Part shown: one piece after another, positions 924 through 37,686 of the stretch
How positions within the stretch are numbered: position 1 is the stretch's first letter
Layout: each line of letters opens with the position of its first letter
Origin: a virus
Taxonomy: Duplodnaviria > Heunggongvirae > Uroviricota > Caudoviricetes
Virus record (IMG/VR): IMGVR_UViG_3300012943_000386
Span: 37,662-101,661 of that record
Direction: 5' to 3' (one strand)
DNA: 64,000 bases
Program-made: the position numbers and the translations under genes
Notes under the pieces: model-generated
Databases searched by the model: none
What the model saw: only the letters and a program-made list of their open reading frames with translations
Told to the model about the DNA's origin: nothing

Positions 924-1349
924 TCAACCTGCCTTGGCAGCCTTGACTACTCGATTTCGAAGATCGGTCGTGCTGAAGGCGTGATCTCGACGGTTGTAGT
1001 ACGTCTCGATACCAAGGGTATCCGCCTCAGCCTTGCCTGTGAAGTCCTTGTCGATGTAGTCGGCCCCAATAATGCGCACATGAACCGGGATTGCCTTGAT
1101 GATCTCAAGCAGCTCTGCCTCGGTCTGATATGGGATGATCTCGTCAACAACGGAAAGCGCCTTCAGCTGAACGTAGCGCTCAACTAGGCTCTGAACTGGC
1201 TTGTTCTTCGTTGGGCGGTCCAGTGTCGGGTCTGTCTGTAGGCCAACTATCAGGTAGTCGCACTGCGTCTTCGCTTCCTGCAGCATCAGGCAGTGGCCCG
1301 CATGCAGAAGGTCGAACGCCCCAAATGTTATCCCAACTTTCTTGTTCAT
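924..1349 (-). CDS. cytidylyltransferase-superfamily nucleotidyltransferase (HldE domain II / TagD-like, HxGH motif)
   Basis: ITFGAFDLLHAGH...DYLIVGLQTD...KPVQSLVERYVQLKALSVVDEIIP...IIGADY...FSTTDL aligns with glycerol-3-phosphate cytidylyltransferase and ADP-heptose synthase domain II. NMN adenylyltransferase fold not excluded. Confidence 0.75.
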   Translation of the reverse strand: MNKKVGITFGAFDLLHAGHCLMLQEAKTQCDYLIVGLQTDPTLDRPTKNKPVQSLVERYVQLKALSVVDEIIPYQTEAELLEIIKAIPVHVRIIGADYIDKDFTGKAEADTLGIETYYNRRDHAFSTTDLRNRVVKAAKAG

Positions 1350-1491
1350 ATTCGGTCCTCACGTAATCCAGCTGATCAATGCAGCTGTTGAAAATATCAA
1401 CGAAACGAGTGTCAAGCTTGAAAGCTAAATTCAGCCCGCGCTCAAGCCGCCGCCGCATTATCTCAAGTTCTTCTACCAGCGTTGGGCTCAC
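1180..1491 (-). CDS. hypothetical ORF, first ~47 codons plausible; overlaps the nucleotidyltransferase gene by ~170 nt
   Basis: ATG overlaps stop of the DnaE-like C fragment (ATGA). N-part MSPTLVEELEIMRRRLERGLNLAFKLDTRFVDIFNSCIDQLDYVRTE is protein-like. Distal part is low-complexity inside another gene. Possible frameshifted remnant. Confidence 0.3.
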   Translation of the reverse strand: MSPTLVEELEIMRRRLERGLNLAFKLDTRFVDIFNSCIDQLDYVRTEYEQESWDNIWGVRPSACGPLPDAAGSEDAVRLPDSWPTDRPDTGPPNEEQASSEPS

Positions 1492-2069
1492 AGAATACTG
1501 GCTTCAATAAGGTGGAGCTGTAGAACAATGACCATCGCGTAGGCAATGGCGTGTGATTTCTTGAACGAGTAGCCGTTCTCATCCTTCGCGTAAAGGATGC
1601 GACGCGTAGCATCTCGCTGCGAGTTGTACAGCTTCGCGTACTGCTTCTTGCCGGGGCGGATGATCGCGAGAACGTCGGCAAGCTCCTCTATGTTCTTCGG
1701 CTTGACAGTGTTGAGGATGTCGCCATGCTTGGAAAGCTGAAACAGCTTCTTCTGCTCGTCGGGAACAGTCAGCAACCCCCAGTCCGGCTCACGCTCGAGA
1801 AGGGCGTCAATTTCTTCCCGCGTTTCGAAGTGATCATAGACATGCAGGTGAAGGAAGTCGATCTTAGCGTAGCCAACGTCCTCAGCGGCGTCATATGGAA
1901 TTGCCGAAAGGCCGGTGATCTTGTCAACAGGAATGTCCTGAGGATGCACACCGCATGGATGCGGTCGCAGCACCCCGTCCTTCGCGAGAGACGCGCGCGC
2001 CCATGGGAACAGTTTCGTTGGGTCGAAGTCTGTTCGAAGGTCAATGTCGACGTCGGCCGAAAAGCTCAA
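1488..2069 (-). CDS. DnaE/PolIII-alpha-like palm domain, C-terminal half (catalytic DxD and third Asp present)
   Basis: SADVDIDL (PDxDxDF), HPCGVHP (HAGGVVI), KIDFLHLHV (KxDFLGL), LFQLSKHG (FQLESRGM), IRPG (FRPGP), RDATRRI (GGADMLRRA), SFKKSHAIAYA (FNKSHSAAYA). Starts at TTG (2067-2069) overlapping the upstream stop. Ends shortly after the KSHAAAYA motif. Confidence 0.7.
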   Translation of the reverse strand: MSFSADVDIDLRTDFDPTKLFPWARASLAKDGVLRPHPCGVHPQDIPVDKITGLSAIPYDAAEDVGYAKIDFLHLHVYDHFETREEIDALLEREPDWGLLTVPDEQKKLFQLSKHGDILNTVKPKNIEELADVLAIIRPGKKQYAKLYNSQRDATRRILYAKDENGYSFKKSHAIAYAMVIVLQLHLIEASIL

Positions 2070-6221: not shown

Positions 6222-7391
6222 TCAGCGCTCAGTGTAGCGCGTTGTGATCGCTGGTGGCGCTTCAATAGAATTGAGCGACATGACAACGTCTGCCCTACGC
6301 GCGTCAATGTGCTCAAGTGAAGAGCGTGGCGTCTGAAGCTGTGGCAGCGTGATCACATCTCGTTCAGCATCCTCACCCTTCTCTTCAGGAAGAGCAGGAC
6401 GAGAGGTTGACGCCGTGTACTCTTCAACGACTGGAGCTGGTGTGTCGAGCGGCATGTCATCAGGAACCTCAACAGTTGCGCCACCCGGGTGTGGGCCAAA
6501 AAAGATGTCCTTGTCACTATCAGGTGAGTATGCAGCTAGCGTGTCCATTCCTGCTGACAGCTCATCAGCATCAAAGCTTGATTTGAGAACAGCATCTGGA
6601 TCGGCGGCCTTCTCAACCTGTTCCTTGTAGTATTCATCTGTGGTGCCAGTCGTCGTCGTCATCAGCGGGCCTGTGACCTCGCCAACCACCATCACCGGCG
6701 CTGCAGGCTCGGGCTTCTTCCTACGTTCAATGAGGAAGTTACCGGCGATCAGCAGCACGATTGCAAACGGGTCGAACACGAAGATGATCGTGAGGATGAC
6801 GTATTTGACCGCCTTCTCAGGGGTGGTGTTGAACGCCTCAGCTACATAGAGGATTGGGCCGAGGTCAGCGCTTTGTTTGACGTTGGCAGACTTCAGCTGT
6901 GGAAGCTGCACATCAATTTCAACAAGGCGCTTGTTGATCCTATCTGTTTCAGGCGCGAACTCCTGCATTAGCTGGCGCCGCGCACGAGCATAATCAGCAG
7001 GAAGGTTTGCGATCTGCTTATCGATTTCCTGCTTGCGGGCCTGCAGCTTTGTCTGTTCACCCTCAAGCGATGTGATGATGATCGTGTCTTGATTGTTCGT
7101 GACGATGGCGTGCTGGAACTGCTGTGATAGGTAGCCGAACACACCAGTCGACGTGATGAGCATGAGAACCGCCGTCGCCGGGATCATGAACCCCTTCATC
7201 AGCAGCTTGATGTCCTTCCAGTACTTGTAGAGGAAGGAGACGCCAGCGACCTTACCAATGTCCAGCGCGATGGCCATCAAGATGATGACCGGGTTCATGT
7301 TGAAGAGGTGACCTAGGCCGGCGACGCTGATGTAGGTACCAATGCCTTCAATGAACAGAGCTGCAAATAGAACGAGGGCGATGAAGAACAC
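6222..7391 (-). CDS. membrane protein with 4 N-terminal TM helices, central coiled coil and acidic C-terminal tail
   Basis: Hydrophobic N-terminal 130 aa, heptad-like middle, D/E/P-rich tail. Confidence 0.55.
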   Translation of the reverse strand: MFFIALVLFAALFIEGIGTYISVAGLGHLFNMNPVIILMAIALDIGKVAGVSFLYKYWKDIKLLMKGFMIPATAVLMLITSTGVFGYLSQQFQHAIVTNNQDTIIITSLEGEQTKLQARKQEIDKQIANLPADYARARRQLMQEFAPETDRINKRLVEIDVQLPQLKSANVKQSADLGPILYVAEAFNTTPEKAVKYVILTIIFVFDPFAIVLLIAGNFLIERRKKPEPAAPVMVVGEVTGPLMTTTTGTTDEYYKEQVEKAADPDAVLKSSFDADELSAGMDTLAAYSPDSDKDIFFGPHPGGATVEVPDDMPLDTPAPVVEEYTASTSRPALPEEKGEDAERDVITLPQLQTPRSSLEHIDARRADVVMSLNSIEAPPAITTRYTER

Positions 7392-8143
7392 TAGACAGCT
7401 CCAATATGCTTGACGATTTCGGGCAGCACGTCAGCGGCTCTACCCTTTGCGAAAATGTAGTTCTTCCCAACATCACCGCAGCCAGAAAGATATGGCTTGA
7501 GATTTACCTCGACAACCTGCGCGCCGCGATTGAGCGGACCAATGACTAGGTCGGCGGCTGGAAATACGTTCAACGATGTTCCAACCGAAACGACAACGTC
7601 GGCATCCTTTGAAAAACCGATGGCTTCCATGAGGGCAGCAGGTGAAAGGTTTTCGAAGAACCATGTGATGCTTGGGCGGAGGTTTTCACTGCGACATTTT
7701 GGGCAAACAGGAACGCTCTCATTGACCCAGAGGTTTTCCTCAGTGGTGTAATCACACGTATCGAAGTTGATGCCGAAGCACTGAAACTTTGCGATGTTTC
7801 CATGAAGCTCGACGAGCTTCTTACTTCCAGCGGCCGCGTGAAGACCGTCAACGTTCTGTGTTGCTAGAAGGAATGGAACACCTTCAGCTTCACAGCGCTG
7901 CTCAATCTGAGCGATGGCAACATGACCGGCGTTTGGCTTGGCACCTGAGTAGGAAAGATAGCGGTCGCGATAGAACTTCCACACGAGCTGTGGGTCCTTC
8001 TGAAACGCCATAGGCGTGCAGACATCTTCAACGCGATGACCTTCCCATAGACCACCGTCTGTTCGAAAGGTTGGTAGGCCCGAGTCGGCCGATAGGCCGG
8101 CGCCGGTGAAGATCAGAACACCCTTCACTTTGACATCTCGCAC
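7391..8143 (-). CDS. Sir2-family NAD-dependent protein deacylase (CobB-like sirtuin)
   Basis: GAGLSADSGLPTFR NAD-binding motif, catalytic His in VELHGN, Zn ribbon CFGINFDTC...CPKC. Confidence 0.85.
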   Translation of the reverse strand: MRDVKVKGVLIFTGAGLSADSGLPTFRTDGGLWEGHRVEDVCTPMAFQKDPQLVWKFYRDRYLSYSGAKPNAGHVAIAQIEQRCEAEGVPFLLATQNVDGLHAAAGSKKLVELHGNIAKFQCFGINFDTCDYTTEENLWVNESVPVCPKCRSENLRPSITWFFENLSPAALMEAIGFSKDADVVVSVGTSLNVFPAADLVIGPLNRGAQVVEVNLKPYLSGCGDVGKNYIFAKGRAADVLPEIVKHIGAV

Positions 8144-10316: not shown

Positions 10317-10534
10317 TCTAGCTCCTTGTCAAGAAAATCAATTGCGAGTAGTCGTTGTGAAAGTTCAGCCTTCAACTGCTCAAGCTGCCATTCACCCCAC
10401 GGTGTAAAGAACCCATCGTAATCATCGCCTTTTGACGCTTCGATTGTCTCAGTAAGCAGGTCATTATTTGAAAGACCCCAAATGCGGTTTTGCTCACGCT
10501 CTGCATTAAGCTTTGACGGCTTTTTCTTTTTAGT
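10313..10534 (-). CDS. hypothetical protein (~73 aa)
   Basis: ORF track 10313..10639 trimmed to MTKKKKPSK. Its ATG overlaps the stop of the DnaE-like N fragment (ATGACTAA). Confidence 0.45.
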   Translation of the reverse strand, partial: TKKKKPSKLNAEREQNRIWGLSNNDLLTETIEASKGDDYDGFFTPWGEWQLEQLKAELSQRLLAIDFLDKELE

Positions 10535-11069
10535 CATGAAAGAATTCTTCCATTGCAATGCCATACTTGATCGGATCGACCTTGTGCAGACCGATAATGA
10601 ACAACACCAACGACGCGCACGAAGAACCACGGCCAACACCCCATACTGTCTTCGTCTCTTTTAGGGTGTCGATGACATAGATGAGCGTTTTCACCAACGG
10701 ATCCATGCCGCGAATTTGAATTTCTTCAAGCTCAACCTTCACTCGCTGCGCGTACTTTGCTGTTGTCTCGTAATCCCAGCGCTGCGCTAATGCCATTGTT
10801 CCAACGGCGTCGAGGACGTAGTTGGCAAGGTCAATATCTTGGTAGCTTTTCGGAACCTTCCACGCCATGTTGAGTGGACGGTTCTTGTCCTTACCTACCG
10901 TAAGCTGCTCCTCAGAAAACTGGTTGAACTGTCTCGTATCCTCACTCTCCTCATTGAGGGCGATGAGCTCTGGAGGGATACCGCCCAGGAAAAGACTTGG
11001 GACCAGCGCAGGATTTACCTGGCTGGTCCCATCGAACCACAGCGTTCTGTCGTTGAGCTCGGTCTTCAC
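10530..11069 (-). CDS. DnaE/PolIII-alpha-like palm domain, N-terminal half
   Basis: C-terminus VWGVGRGSSCASLVLFIIGLHKVDPIKYGIAMEEFFHD matches DnaE [34 protein letters not shown]. Ends exactly where PDIDIDF begins in the other fragment. GTG start at 11067-11069 coupled to the upstream stop. Confidence 0.7.
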   Translation of the reverse strand: MKTELNDRTLWFDGTSQVNPALVPSLFLGGIPPELIALNEESEDTRQFNQFSEEQLTVGKDKNRPLNMAWKVPKSYQDIDLANYVLDAVGTMALAQRWDYETTAKYAQRVKVELEEIQIRGMDPLVKTLIYVIDTLKETKTVWGVGRGSSCASLVLFIIGLHKVDPIKYGIAMEEFFHD

Positions 11070-19274: not shown

Positions 19275-19698
19275 CGACCGCTGGTTGCTTATCTGTTGCC
19301 TCGCGAATTAGAGTTCCAAGCACTAGATTGTATGGAATGCCAGATGCCCGGCAGGCCTGTAGAAGTTCAAGCTGAGATATTGCTAGCTTAACCGGCCCAT
19401 CTGTTTCAAGTTTCACTTCAGCTATTTCACTACCTAAGCAACCATCACACGCGTAGTTGAAATGCCGACCCGCCTTGATGTCGTGATTTTCGCGGATGAC
19501 ATTAGCAACCATGTCTGGCCACGGCATCGAGCTAAGCTCTGGTTCTTCAACCCACGGTAGGCCCACTTTAGCGCTTGCCCACTGAATGAGAAGTGGCTCG
19601 GCTACTCTCCCGTGCGCCGCTTTCCACGGGTCGCGGCACCCGCTTATGGGGTTCTTAAAGCAGAAGTCGACTTTATCAATTGGAAGTTCAAGCATCAC
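19186..19698 (-). CDS. hypothetical protein (170 aa)
   Basis: ORF track. Sits between the DUF1552 and Thg1-like genes. Confidence 0.45.
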   Translation of the reverse strand: MMLELPIDKVDFCFKNPISGCRDPWKAAHGRVAEPLLIQWASAKVGLPWVEEPELSSMPWPDMVANVIRENHDIKAGRHFNYACDGCLGSEIAEVKLETDGPVKLAISQLELLQACRASGIPYNLVLGTLIREATDKQPAVVAPIGIVDLCSGSYLNGYEVLVSRVRAVV

Positions 19699-20519
19699 GC
19701 AAAGAGCGCTCGCGCCCTGGTATCGTTCTTGATGTAGCCAAGATCCATGTTCACCACGCTGGTGCGCGCAACTGGGCCGGACGGACGATACTTCTCTGGG
19801 ATTTTCGCGAGCTGCTCTGCTGAGATTGGCCTCATCTGCGTTTCGCGACGAACGAACGTACCGCTCTTGAAGAACGTTGGCTCATCTTCCCACGGCTTGT
19901 TGAGCTCGCGCAGCAGCTGCTTCTTGCTCTCACTGTCCACCGCGTGAAGGCGCTTGTGCGAGAAGTGCGCCTGCGCGGCCATCGAGATGGAGTTTTTGAT
20001 CGCGTCATCCTGGCGCCAGAGGAAGTTCAGGAAGGCCTCGTGCTTTGTTGGCACGTTCCACACACGGCAATCGAACATTGCCAGCTGGTCAGCCTTTTCA
20101 GGGATGCGCTCAGGCAGGTAGCGCGTGAAGTAGGCGCTCGCCATAGCGGCGAGTACCGACGTCAGCTTCTGGATTTTGCCGTCGAAGAGGTAGGTGCTTT
20201 CGGCCGCCGGGTCATCGTTCCACCATACGAGGCTGATCTCGTCAGACTGAGTGTAGCCAACGCGTGCGTGCGTCTGCTCAACGAGGTACCTCGCGGTGTC
20301 GATCATGAGGCTGCTTAGGCGCACGTCGTACGGACGCGGCAGACCACGGGTGAAGGTGTGGAACGCCCGGCCATCGAGGCGAGCCATGAGAGGCGCACCG
20401 TGGTCGGCGCGACGGCCAGCCTCAACTTGCTCTTGCTGCTTGAGGCGATCGCCTAGGCTGTCTTTGGAAGGGGTCTGTTCGACTTCATTCATGGGGCTCA
20501 CCGATAGATTAGACCCCAT
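19695..20519 (-). CDS. Thg1-like protein (tRNA-His guanylyltransferase family, 3'-5' nucleotidyltransferase)
   Basis: MARLDGRAFHTFTRGLPRPYD (Thg1 VRLDGRNFHKF), GYTQSDEISLVW (YGQSDEYSF), FDCRVWNVPTKHEAFLNFLWRQDDAIKNSI and the C-terminal block align with Thg1/TLP. ATG 20517-20519. Confidence 0.7.
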   Translation of the reverse strand: MGSNLSVSPMNEVEQTPSKDSLGDRLKQQEQVEAGRRADHGAPLMARLDGRAFHTFTRGLPRPYDVRLSSLMIDTARYLVEQTHARVGYTQSDEISLVWWNDDPAAESTYLFDGKIQKLTSVLAAMASAYFTRYLPERIPEKADQLAMFDCRVWNVPTKHEAFLNFLWRQDDAIKNSISMAAQAHFSHKRLHAVDSESKKQLLRELNKPWEDEPTFFKSGTFVRRETQMRPISAEQLAKIPEKYRPSGPVARTSVVNMDLGYIKNDTRARALFA

Positions 20520-35495: not shown

Positions 35496-35706
35496 GATAC
35501 TCCTCAATGTGCGGCGCATCTCTGCAAACGTGGCACTTCGTGCAGCGCTCACCGTCGTAGTAGGTCTGCGTTCCAGGACCAATGGTGATCCACCCGCTGC
35601 CCTTGACCCAATCATGGTCACAGGCATCCGCATGGGCGCGATAGATGTAGATCGCAATCGCAGCGAGGATGAGAAGAATACCAATGAAGGTGAACGTGTT
35701 CAGCAT
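35479..35706 (-). CDS. small membrane-anchored Cys/His-rich protein
   Basis: N-terminal TM FIGILLILAAIAIYIY, then CDHD...CTKCHVC. Confidence 0.4.
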   Translation of the reverse strand: MLNTFTFIGILLILAAIAIYIYRAHADACDHDWVKGSGWITIGPGTQTYYDGERCTKCHVCRDAPHIEEYHEHRE

Positions 35707-36266
35707 GGTCCGGCCATCCCTTCAACAGCCACGACTGGCTGGTCAGTGTCCACAAACATGACGCTGTCGACCTCTGCTCCAAGGAGCAGGCCTTGCTGGC
35801 TCATGTACATATTGCGCACGACGCCATCCGGCACGCTCTTGTCGCCGCGCGTCTTCTGGCGGTCAAGCACGGTCTGCAGCTTGCACATCACCTCAACGCC
35901 GATAACGTAGAACCCCTTCTGCCGCGCCTCCTGTATCCAGCGAGCACGACCCTTCTTGGTGAAGTTCGTGTTGTCAACGAACAGATTGTCGGTCTCGAGC
36001 GCCTTTGACCAGGCCTCAGCAATGAAGACGTTGAACTCCTTCTCGTGGTTCTTGGCGTACTCGAAGGTCGCGTTGTACATGTCTGCGTCGGTATCATTGT
36101 CCGACCACCACTGGCCCGGGTGTTGCGCACACATAAACTTGTAGCGGCACGTGTCCAGCGAGAAAACGTTGTAGCTCTCGATCCGGAAAAGATCGATCAG
36201 CGTCTTGCGCACAGTCGTCTTTCCGGCACCAGAAGGTCCAACCATTAGGTAGCACTTCTTCATCAA
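35700..36266 (-). CDS. P-loop kinase, polynucleotide 5'-kinase (T4 Pnk N-domain)-like
   Basis: Walker A MVGPSGAGKTT. KLQTVLDRQKTRGDKSVPDGVVRNMYMS parallels T4 Pnk [25 protein letters not shown]. No phosphatase domain. Confidence 0.65.
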   Translation of the reverse strand: MMKKCYLMVGPSGAGKTTVRKTLIDLFRIESYNVFSLDTCRYKFMCAQHPGQWWSDNDTDADMYNATFEYAKNHEKEFNVFIAEAWSKALETDNLFVDNTNFTKKGRARWIQEARQKGFYVIGVEVMCKLQTVLDRQKTRGDKSVPDGVVRNMYMSQQGLLLGAEVDSVMFVDTDQPVVAVEGMAGPC

Positions 36267-36577
36267 CGCACCTCGATAGTAGTAATGCCGTTGTCTTTTC
36301 GCAACTCAGCACTGTGCTGTTGTGAAGCGTCAACACATTTGAACTGAATTTGCGCGCGCGGGTCTGGTGTTCGTGTTGAGTTAATGGACATTACTTCAAT
36401 AACTTTACCATGAGATTGACAAAACTGCCCAGCTTTTTCAAGGGCTGGCACTTCAGGTGCAGACCATGGTACACCGTGTGTAGACAACAAATAAGTATCG
36501 CGGCCAGTAGATACTGGGTGCGATACTGTTGTACAGCCAGAAATGAGGGCGACTACAAAAACGAATGTCTTCTTCAT
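36263..36577 (-). CDS. lipoprotein
   Basis: MKKTFVFVVALISGCTT lipobox signal peptide. Confidence 0.5.
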   Translation of the reverse strand: MKKTFVFVVALISGCTTVSHPVSTGRDTYLLSTHGVPWSAPEVPALEKAGQFCQSHGKVIEVMSINSTRTPDPRAQIQFKCVDASQQHSAELRKDNGITTIEVR

Positions 36578-37176
36578 ACAGCCTCCCAAGCGATCATCCA
36601 CTCAGCCACGTCAGCGAGCTTCTTGGGCTGATCGTCCGATGTGCGGCCATGCTGGTCGCTGTTGAGCAGGTCCAACCATGCCTGGTGTCCTGCCGGACCC
36701 ATGCGGTTGATGAACGCGTCCTTCAGGGCCTTGCGCTTCTGCTTGTCCTTCAGCGCGAACGGCACGTGGTGCTCAAGCATCAGCGCAACGTTTGAGATGT
36801 CAGCGAGTGAGAAGCCGGTCAGCTCAGTAACGAGTGCTCGGTTCGTCAGCGCGTAGTCCACCCACATGCGAGCTGAAACCTGCTCATGGCCATGGTAGGC
36901 GCGGTAGTTGCCGCGTTCCTCGGAGAACTTGAGGATCTCTGCTGGCGGCTTGCCGACATCGTGAAACAGGCAGCTGACCAGCGAGAGCATGCGCTGCGTC
37001 TCTGAGCGGTGCTCGTAGAAGTTTGCCATGTAGTAGTCAAGCAGCATCTGCGTATGAACGGCAACATTTGCCTCGCGATGCCATGGCGAATTCTCGACCG
37101 TACGCACCATCGCGGCCCACTCAGGCGTCTGCTTGAATGCCGCGTGGAGAGCTGTGAATTGTGCGTAGGCGCTCAT
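36574..37176 (-). CDS. HD-domain phosphohydrolase
   Basis: H...HD motif (VAVHTQM ... SCLFHDVGKP), 200 aa. Confidence 0.7.
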   Translation of the reverse strand: MSAYAQFTALHAAFKQTPEWAAMVRTVENSPWHREANVAVHTQMLLDYYMANFYEHRSETQRMLSLVSCLFHDVGKPPAEILKFSEERGNYRAYHGHEQVSARMWVDYALTNRALVTELTGFSLADISNVALMLEHHVPFALKDKQKRKALKDAFINRMGPAGHQAWLDLLNSDQHGRTSDDQPKKLADVAEWMIAWEAV

Positions 37177-37577: not shown

Positions 37578-37686
37578 CCTCGATGACCAGCTGGTTCACA
37601 GCTGACGCGTCAATCGACTTGATCTTCCGACCCTTGAGCACCTTGAAGGCGTCTTCGCGGGCGGACTTCTTTCGCTTCTTGGCCAT
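37489..37686 (-). CDS. hypothetical protein (65 aa)
   Basis: ORF track. Confidence 0.3.
   Translation of the reverse strand: MAKKRKKSAREDAFKVLKGRKIKSIDASAVNQLVIEDDSGNVYEIDAYTDGHGVPYLTISKFIPD

Follow-up and report, generated by a model that had tools for sequence, protein, structure and literature searches.

On the minus strand of a 64,000-nucleotide stretch of a Caudoviricetes genome (IMG/VR virus record IMGVR_UViG_3300012943_000386, positions 37,662 to 101,661; hereafter the window) lies a 274-codon open reading frame (ORF) predicted to encode a Thg1-like protein (TLP; Table 1). An earlier interpretation made from the letters and ORFs of this DNA alone, referred to here as the sequence-only reading, had described its product as a phage-encoded Thg1-like 3'-5' nucleotidyltransferase carrying the motifs ARLDGRAFHTF and TQSDEISLVW. 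The ORF and both motifs are present as described, the motifs spanning residues 46-56 and 90-99. Translation more likely begins at Met10 (ATG at 20492), giving a protein of 265 aa, because this start agrees with the N-termini of homologs and with an independent 265-aa gene call (P0001), 100% identical to the TLP, from a 198-kb contig of the source metagenome. Residue numbers given below are those of the long ORF.

Profile searches place the predicted enzyme in the Thg1/TLP superfamily with near certainty. The Pfam Thg1 domain (PF04446) matches residues 32-157 at 95.9 bits (gathering cutoff 29.2, E=2.3e-27), covering positions 7-130 of the 130 positions in the profile, and PHROG 4717, labelled 'tRNA-His guanylyltransferase', matches with E=4e-73. 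The TLP of Bacillus thuringiensis (BtTLP; PDB 4KGK) aligns with residues 20-226 at E=6.7e-38, against E=4e-9 to 8e-5 for eukaryotic Thg1s, the best of which is the Candida protein (4.4e-9), and E=3.6e-6 for the archaeal TLP of Methanosarcina (5AXK). Of the two Pfam families that the sequence-only reading had proposed as a check, the Thg1 domain was thus recovered, but the Thg1 C-terminal domain gave no match at E<=0.01; precomputed Pfam annotation of 120 homologs likewise holds PF04446 alone. The C-terminal half of the protein aligns with BtTLP both in sequence and in the structural model, and its C-terminal region contains a motif, IPExHRPxGPVxR, conserved in the clade formed by loci whose TLPs share about 55% identity or more with the window TLP (hereafter the clade). 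NCBIfam and PADLOC returned no match for the TLP or for its small neighbours.

The HINNLYN motif of true Thg1 reads the anticodon, its His stacking on base G36 (PMC6471195). In the aligned region (WRQDDAIKNSISM in the window TLP, WRQVDCHINNLYN in Candida Thg1) the viral protein reads AIKNSISM, as BtTLP does, and KNSISM is common to the two. Since AIKNSISM replaces HINNLYN, the C-terminal profile gives no match and BtTLP is by far the closest relative of solved structure, we classify the product as a bacterial-type TLP and not as a tRNA-His guanylyltransferase in the strict sense.

The predicted structure agrees with this classification. An AlphaFold model of the TLP, built with 45 homologs, reached a predicted local distance difference test (pLDDT) score of 91.7 and a predicted TM-score (pTM) of 0.85, and all 32 significant Foldseek matches in the PDB were Thg1/TLP structures. 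BtTLP was the best of them (root-mean-square deviation 1.9 Å over 208 columns, 38% identity; target-normalised TM-score 0.8-0.89), relative to which the viral protein has about 19 additional low-confidence residues at its N-terminus. Residue roles were taken from BtTLP (PMC3701042) and carried over through the alignment with PDB 4KGK. The catalytic carboxylates of BtTLP, D30, D75 and E76, correspond to D29, D76 and E77 of human THG1 (hTHG1), the BtTLP residues D30 and D75 binding metal (PMC3701042); in the window TLP they map to D49, D93 and E94. Residues of the nucleotidyl-transfer or nucleoside triphosphate (NTP) site, E12, R28, R131 and R147, map to E30, R47, R152 and R169, and the further pairs S74 and M158 to S92 and M180. 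The triphosphate of the incoming NTP is bound in BtTLP by R28 and R131, with a salt bridge from E12, and in hTHG1 by R27, K95 and R130 (PMC3701042). Residue K118 of the window TLP is conserved, aligns with the Q-K of the BtTLP sequence NNLQKI and is taken, from its position in the motif, as the probable counterpart of hTHG1 K95. All of the mapped catalytic and NTP-site residues, together with S92, M180 and K118, show no variation in three phage TLP alignments, of 13, 45 and 77 sequences, and the metal-binding Asp/Glu positions singled out by the sequence-only reading are therefore intact on careful alignment. The ratio of nonsynonymous to synonymous substitution rates (dN/dS) is 0.09 against the 85%-identical ortholog at locus L009; the gene is functional and under strong purifying selection.

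Thg1-like genes are a recurrent feature of large phages. A tblastn search of 50,697 deposited phage records detected a TLP homolog in 162, every one below 60% identity. The carriers are mostly large or jumbo phages, infecting Bacillus, Caulobacter, Brevundimonas, Burkholderia, Erwinia, Vibrio, Pseudomonas and other hosts, and many of the homologs bear the annotation 'tRNA-His guanylyltransferase' or 'putative Thg1'. IMG/VR contains a TLP in at least 366 viral stretches, and a collection of 5.8 billion proteins yielded 7,234 homologs at E<=1e-10, with many of the closest on contigs of 290-370 kb. Thg1 has been listed among the RNA-repair genes of jumbo phages (Iyer et al., 2021; PMC7824862), and a review of the TLP field from 2019 leaves phages unmentioned. 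The sequence-only interpretation is thus supported as sound, yet its idea is not new, in view of the 162 GenBank records and of Iyer et al. (2021): a phage TLP with an RNA-repair role is already a published prediction, and the gene adds a divergent member to an annotated family. Two features were not met in the literature consulted, namely the clade-specific arrangement of the TLP gene next to a gene of the Acb1 family and the near-universal replacement of Lys by Arg at an ATP-contacting position of phage TLPs, both described below.

The window has a G+C content of 54% and carries nearly all of its genes on the minus strand. Its products include a T4-type large terminase, tail sheath, tail tube and gp13- and gp15-like proteins; replication is represented by gp32, UvsX/RecA, UvsW and a DnaB-type helicase, and nucleotide metabolism by a class I ribonucleotide reductase, a glutaredoxin, a dCMP deaminase and an IMPDH/GMP-reductase-family protein. 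Ralstonia phage RsoM2USA (344 kb) has a terminase 44% identical to that of the window, identity to the terminases of PA5oct, Atu_ph07 and XacN1 being about 40%, and a nucleotide search with the 6 kb around the TLP found no match among the 50,697 phage records. The genome represents a jumbo myovirus lineage known from metagenomes only, with RsoM2USA as its nearest isolate. The sequence-only reading had called the genome T4-like, a description borne out by the T4-type core genes but not by the nearest relatives, which are jumbo myoviruses and contigs of 340-370 kb; it holds at the level of core-gene ancestry only.

Table 1. Coordinates of the TLP gene and of other features discussed in the text. 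Positions are those of the window unless preceded by the name of another locus or contig.
Feature	Position	Strand	Remarks
TLP gene	19695..20519	minus	274-codon ORF plus stop
Acb1-family 2H phosphodiesterase, 151 aa	20553..21008	minus	PF23474 match; 33 nt upstream of TLP
Inverted repeat, perfect 8 bp, 6-nt loop	20528..20549		CAGTTTAC-N6-GTAAACTG; in the 33-nt Acb1-TLP spacer
orf170, 170 aa	19186..19698	minus	start overlaps TLP stop by 4 nt
DUF1552 (HXXSHH) protein, 415 aa	17724..18971	minus	E=3.7e-74
Polynucleotide 5'-kinase-like P-loop kinase	35700..36266	minus	AAA_33, 1.8e-12; PHROG 505 polynucleotide kinase, 3.4e-14
HD-domain phosphohydrolase	36574..37176	minus	HD, 3.7e-4; phrog_6931, 6.5e-13
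CCA-adding/repair-type tRNA nucleotidyltransferase (376 aa) and second nucleotidyltransferase (346 aa)	L089:12364-14536		same phage
CUA-anticodon tRNA	L023:12297-12373
CUA-anticodon tRNA	L026:11731-11806
CUA-anticodon tRNA	L040:16190-16264
CUA-anticodon tRNA	L088:10948-11022
SPFH/Band 7 protein, 459 aa	39526..40905	minus	just downstream of terminase on the coding strand
Sir2-family protein	7391..8143	minus
Cytidylyltransferase-like protein	924..1349	minus
DNA polymerase III alpha-like ORF	10530..11069	minus
DNA polymerase III alpha-like ORF	1488..2069	minus

To place the gene in its wider context, we compared 76 non-redundant phage TLP loci with 10-kb flanks, 13 of them from the clade and 63 from elsewhere. 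In raw counts, tRNA genes occur within 10 kb of the TLP at 28 of the 63 loci outside the clade, with five or more (up to 32) at 18, and within 1 kb at 15, several TLPs lying inside arrays; in RsoM2USA itself the TLP is followed, about 3 kb downstream, by nine tRNA genes. Six of the 76 loci have a homolog of the CCA-adding enzyme no more than 10 kb from the TLP, adjacent to it in L023, and six of the 76 have an RNA ligase (PF09414) within that distance, adjacent in L088.

Enzymes acting on RNA ends are also predicted in the window phage itself, dispersed at a distance from the TLP. A pair of genes about 1.5 kb beyond the left end of the window, some 21 kb from the TLP, encodes a CCA-adding-type enzyme (phrog_2244, 9e-90; NCBIfam CCA addition/repair head domain, 2e-79, below the equivalog cutoff) and a second nucleotidyltransferase (phrog_388). 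In clade member L007 the two are fused into a single 724-aa protein encoded 1 kb downstream of the TLP. Within the window, the kinase listed in Table 1 matches the kinase region of bacterial Pnkp at 5e-7, far below the curated cutoff, and the HD protein and the kinase align with separate halves of phrog_6931 (positions 21-158 and 184-338, respectively), a 112-aa ORF lying between their genes. The arrangement suggests an HD-kinase protein that has been split in two and may heal RNA ends. The kinase, whose gene is unlinked to the TLP, is a candidate member of a phage RNA-end repair toolkit, and the HD phosphohydrolase is, more tentatively, a candidate 3'-end healing enzyme. Taken together, the tRNA arrays, CCA-adding enzymes, kinase and HD protein fit a phage toolkit that maintains both ends of tRNAs.

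Because of the homology of the protein and the association of its relatives elsewhere with tRNA arrays, CCA-adding enzymes and RNA ligases, we infer that its biological role is to repair tRNA 5' ends from a template, or to control their quality, during infection, a reading that we consider probable, though well short of secure. The TLP would take an RNA with a shortened 5' strand, activate its 5'-monophosphate with ATP or GTP, or use an existing 5'-triphosphate, and add nucleotides singly in the 3'-to-5' direction by two-metal catalysis (D49 and D93, aided by E94). The opposite 3' strand of the tRNA acceptor stem would serve as the template through Watson-Crick pairing. In the infected cell the enzyme would repair, or control the quality of, the 5' ends of host tRNAs, phage tRNAs or both, as one of a dispersed set of tRNA-end enzymes that would include the CCA-adding enzyme at the 3' end and possibly the Pnk-like kinase and the HD phosphohydrolase; its expression would come from the early nucleotide-metabolism and replication gene block. 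Catalytic competence and 3'-5' addition on 5'-truncated tRNA are predicted from homology and from genomic association in other phages. That tRNA is the substrate, that the phage benefits by keeping translation going, possibly in the face of a host nuclease, and that the gene is expressed at the time proposed are likewise presumed.

Several observations weigh against this role. The sequence-only reading had suggested checking the tRNA repertoire of the phage, and none emerged: there is no tRNA gene in the 64-kb window, in about 10 kb past its left end (L089) or in an 11-kb contig overlapping its right end (L091), nor at any of the 13 clade loci, so that the association with tRNA arrays does not hold for the window phage as far as its sequence was seen. 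The proximity to tRNA genes in other phages, moreover, is given by raw counts. We parsed the acceptor stems of 285 phage tRNAs beside TLPs after a register search, and rejected a need of phage tRNAs for mitochondrial-style 5' editing: a 1:72 mismatch was present in 12 of the 285, mostly tRNA-Met. Such a mismatch is a normal feature of initiator tRNA-Met. The activation step may also have changed. In BtTLP, K43 contacts N3 of ATP by a hydrogen bond and S74 contacts N7, and a K43A substitution makes adenylylation about 10-fold slower without slowing guanylylation (PMC3701042). The position of K43 is occupied by Arg62 in the window TLP and by Arg in 74 of 77 phage TLPs, and because of this replacement the nucleotide preference in the activation step may differ from that of BtTLP. 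Finally, the literature consulted yielded neither an experimental study of any phage TLP nor a described anti-phage nuclease that truncates the 5' strand of tRNA.

The last point bears directly on the suggestion, made in the sequence-only reading by analogy with the action of T4 Pnk/Rnl against anticodon nucleases, that the TLP could counter host defences aimed at tRNA. The described anti-phage tRNases spare the 5' strand, and the analogy consequently lacks a known target. PrrC, VapC, PARIS and Cas13 cut in the anticodon loop; Retron-Eco7 PtuAB cuts in the variable-loop region after U47 and Cash in the T-loop; on the 3' side, retron Eco2 attacks the 3' acceptor strand, and Cas12a3 and HEPN-MNT the CCA tail. 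Since none of them removes 5' nucleotides, a counter-defence role would be one without a known opponent. We regard it as unlikely that in the clade the TLP, kept in an operon-like order with Acb1 amid rapidly evolving accessory ORFs, rebuilds tRNA 5' ends against a host nuclease of an undescribed type, or that it acts on a substrate other than tRNA. Either reading, if true, would provide the first physiological role for a bacterial-type TLP, and the cognate host nuclease, if it exists, would add a new class to the defences directed at tRNA. The in vivo role of bacterial-type TLPs should be tractable in phages, where the gene is dispensable for the host, is under strong purifying selection and recurs next to tRNA arrays, CCA-adding enzymes and RNA ligases.

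The tRNAs encoded beside other phage TLPs also bear on tRNA-His maturation, in which the enzyme would supply tRNA-His of the phage or the host with its G-1 identity nucleotide, C73 serving as template. In vitro, BtTLP is able to place G-1 opposite C73, and the action of TLPs depends on Watson-Crick pairing (PMC6471195). A C73 is present in six of the seven phage tRNA-His genes found beside TLPs, where it stands opposite G-1, and tRNA-His guanylyltransferase is the name that many GenBank records give to the protein. All seven of these genes, however, encode G-1 themselves, as in bacteria, so de novo addition would be unneeded. A phage tRNA-His without encoded G-1 was accordingly rejected as a general need, which counts against the repair of phage tRNA 5' ends as well. 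Most TLP-adjacent arrays, furthermore, hold many tRNA species and several hold no tRNA-His; the window and its flanks contain no tRNA-His gene; and the HINNLYN anticodon-recognition motif is absent from the window TLP. Maturation of tRNA-His is in our view an improbable function for this protein, and we retain templated 5'-end repair as the preferred one.

At four divergent TLP loci (L023, L026, L040 and L088), the sole tRNA gene found has a CUA anticodon, of the amber-suppressor type, and is located downstream of the TLP at a distance of 0.1-5.3 kb. Two of these loci, L023 and L026, also have a gene for a CCA-adding enzyme just upstream of the TLP. ORF lengths, used as a crude test for TAG recoding, gave no signal at the four loci.

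On the coding strand, the genes around the TLP follow the order NrdA-NrdB-glutaredoxin-small membrane protein-Acb1-TLP-orf170-orf96-DUF1552-orf99-UvrD-like helicase. The immediate upstream neighbour had been recognised as a 2H phosphoesterase by the sequence-only reading, and it belongs specifically to the Acb1 family: it matches Pfam PF23474 at 91.9 bits (cutoff 27, E=4e-26) and the Acb1 structure PDB 7T26 at 2e-12, and its two H-x-T motifs (H42-T-T44 and H115-I-T117) are invariant in 14 homologs. Because this neighbour is a predicted homolog of Acb1, which counters the cyclic-oligonucleotide-based anti-phage signalling system (CBASS), an RNA end-healing partnership cannot simply be assumed, and we treat the gene as genomic context and not as an established partner of the TLP.

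The pairing of the two genes is nonetheless regular within the clade, where in 13 of 13 loci Acb1 directly precedes the TLP on its strand. Stop and start codons frequently overlap or are almost contiguous, and in several members one or two unrelated ORFs lie between the genes. Outside the clade, an Acb1 homolog occurs at one of the 63 TLP loci, at a distance of 6 kb. In a second set of 80 loci centred on Acb1, gathered with an alignment as query after a single-sequence query had returned none, the tight Acb1-TLP pair is restricted to the clade. A second, distinct clade has the TLP 3-4.5 kb upstream of Acb1, the intervening genes encoding thymidylate synthase, DHFR and an NAD-dependent DNA ligase. 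Synteny within the first clade covers the whole block from Nrd through glutaredoxin, membrane protein, Acb1 and TLP to UvrD. A widespread two-gene Acb1-TLP cassette was therefore rejected, the pair being absent at 62 of 63 outside loci and separated by other genes in the second clade. Acb1 and the TLP share an early nucleotide-metabolism module in two lineages and do not form a dedicated cassette. Acb1 stands beside a tRNA array in 11 of the 80 Acb1 loci, all from other phages, including some with KVP40-sized genomes.

This distribution bears on a functional pairing of the two proteins, which could take two forms. In an RNA end-healing and repair cassette, the 2H enzyme would open 2',3'-cyclic phosphates and the TLP would rebuild 5' ends; alternatively, the TLP would supply a second anti-signalling activity, its GGDEF/Cas10-related palm acting on nucleotide messengers or their breakdown products. 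The constant adjacency in the clade, with its frequently overlapping or nearly overlapping codons, and the retention of a TLP 3-4.5 kb upstream of Acb1 in the second clade would suit either form. So would the match of the neighbour to PHROG 755, labelled 'RNA ligase' (LigT-like), the suggestion that 2H enzymes may also clear 2',3'-cyclic RNA ends (Iyer et al., 2021; PMC7824862), and the relationship of the Thg1 palm to GGDEF and Cas10. Against these stand the lack of the pair at nearly all outside TLP loci and at most of the 80 centred on Acb1, the synteny of the entire block with unrelated ORFs inserted in several members, and the intervening genes of the second clade, which indicate a shared module and no cassette; in addition, the rebuilding of 5' ends has no chemical need of a 2',3'-cyclic phosphodiesterase. 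We judge a functional pair with Acb1 to be quite improbable.

The 33-nt spacer between the two genes contains an inverted repeat that occurs once in the window. A weak sigma-70-like match (TTTACT-17-TAGAAT) overlaps this hairpin and has its -10 box over the first ATG of the long TLP ORF, an arrangement that would fit Met10 as the real start of the TLP. A scan for promoters and terminators around the TLP gave match counts at chance level (promoter-like 4 versus 3.1 expected).

No conserved structured RNA was seen beside the TLP gene except for this one short hairpin, which also argues against a different class of substrate, the 5' ends of phage transcripts or small RNAs, that the enzyme might repair, remodel or furnish with a cap-like 5'-App or Gpp affecting stability. 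RNA recognition by TLPs is broader than that of Thg1 and does not read the anticodon (PMC6471195), and one Dictyostelium TLP is reported to differ in function from the others, whose roles are tRNA-directed (PMC5041481). The first chemical step, moreover, yields a 5'-adenylylated or guanylylated RNA, and no tRNA gene lies near the TLP in the clade. Such a substrate is, however, without positive support at this locus, and the strongest recurrent context in other phages consists of tRNA arrays, CCA-adding enzymes and RNA ligases. A non-tRNA RNA substrate of this kind accordingly seems to us a long shot, and tRNA remains the substrate that we favour.

Downstream of the TLP, the overlap of the orf170 start with the TLP stop suggests that orf170 is translationally coupled to the TLP. 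The orf170 product has no family match in Pfam, NCBIfam, PHROG or PADLOC and an unusable AlphaFold2 model (pLDDT 34), and the gene occurs only in the window and its closest relatives (L005/L009). It evolves rapidly, being 27% identical to its L009 ortholog, while the TLP, DUF1552 and Acb1 proteins are 85%, 87% and 78% identical to theirs, and the ORFs in the corresponding position of L006 and L007 are not homologous to it. Since the slots around the TLP hold different, unrelated ORFs among clade members, its surroundings constitute an accessory, fast-turnover stretch amid conserved core genes. The DUF1552 gene that the sequence-only reading had placed in the same region is indeed there (Table 1); its product shows a weak match to a twin-arginine translocation (TAT) signal. 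Outside the window the gene occurs in the closest relative alone (L005/L009), and its dN/dS of 0.075 indicates purifying selection.

Some further genes of the window stand apart from the TLP. The 459-aa protein encoded next to the terminase contains an SPFH/Band 7 domain (5e-16). A Sir2-family protein (Pfam SIR2, 6e-40; PHROG 2162) has no PADLOC match and is thus unlike the Sir2 defence effectors of that library. The best match of a cytidylyltransferase-like protein is the heptose-1-phosphate adenylyltransferase domain (RfaE domain II), at 4e-23 and below the cutoff, with weaker matches to nicotinamide mononucleotide (NMN) adenylyltransferase; NAMPT genes occur within 4 kb of the TLP in six other phage loci. 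Two short ORFs about 8.5 kb apart correspond to separate pieces of bacterial DNA polymerase III alpha, an NTPase domain and a finger domain; either the polymerase gene is split or fragmented, or the products are small proteins derived from its domains.

Among known systems, T4 Pnk/Rnl1, which acts against PrrC, resembles the proposed activity in concept, as a phage tRNA repair that restores translation, and the window phage has a candidate Pnk-like kinase. The chemistry differs: T4 Pnk/Rnl1 heals ends and ligates a nick, whereas the TLP would replace missing 5' nucleotides by 3'-5' polymerisation, and the window ORFs that were scanned include no RNA ligase. The eukaryotic Thg1 enzymes (human THG1L and those of yeast and Candida), which add G-1 to tRNA-His, share with the window TLP the palm fold and the two-metal active site, but they are only about 21% identical to it in structural alignment. 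Because HINNLYN is absent and the similarity is weak, non-templated addition of G-1 opposite A73 is not expected of the window TLP.

Closer relatives are the phage genes of PHROG 4717, exemplified by BcepSauron gp334 (Burkholderia), RsoM2USA gp183 (Ralstonia), the 'putative Thg1' of 201phi2-1 (Pseudomonas) and that of CcrColossus (Caulobacter). They are 41-51% identical to the window TLP over 77-95% of its length and, like it, belong to large or jumbo tailed phages; many of them lie in or beside tRNA arrays, whereas the window TLP sits in the conserved Acb1-TLP arrangement with no tRNA genes nearby. The best match in both sequence and structure is BtTLP (PDB 4KGK and 4KGM), a bacterial TLP that repairs 5'-truncated tRNAs in vitro. 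The window TLP differs from it in being phage-encoded, in its N-terminal extension, in having Arg62 in place of Lys43 and in the C-terminal motif of its clade, and has in common with it the three carboxylates, the arginines and glutamate of the NTP-transfer site and the motif WRQxDAxKNSISM.

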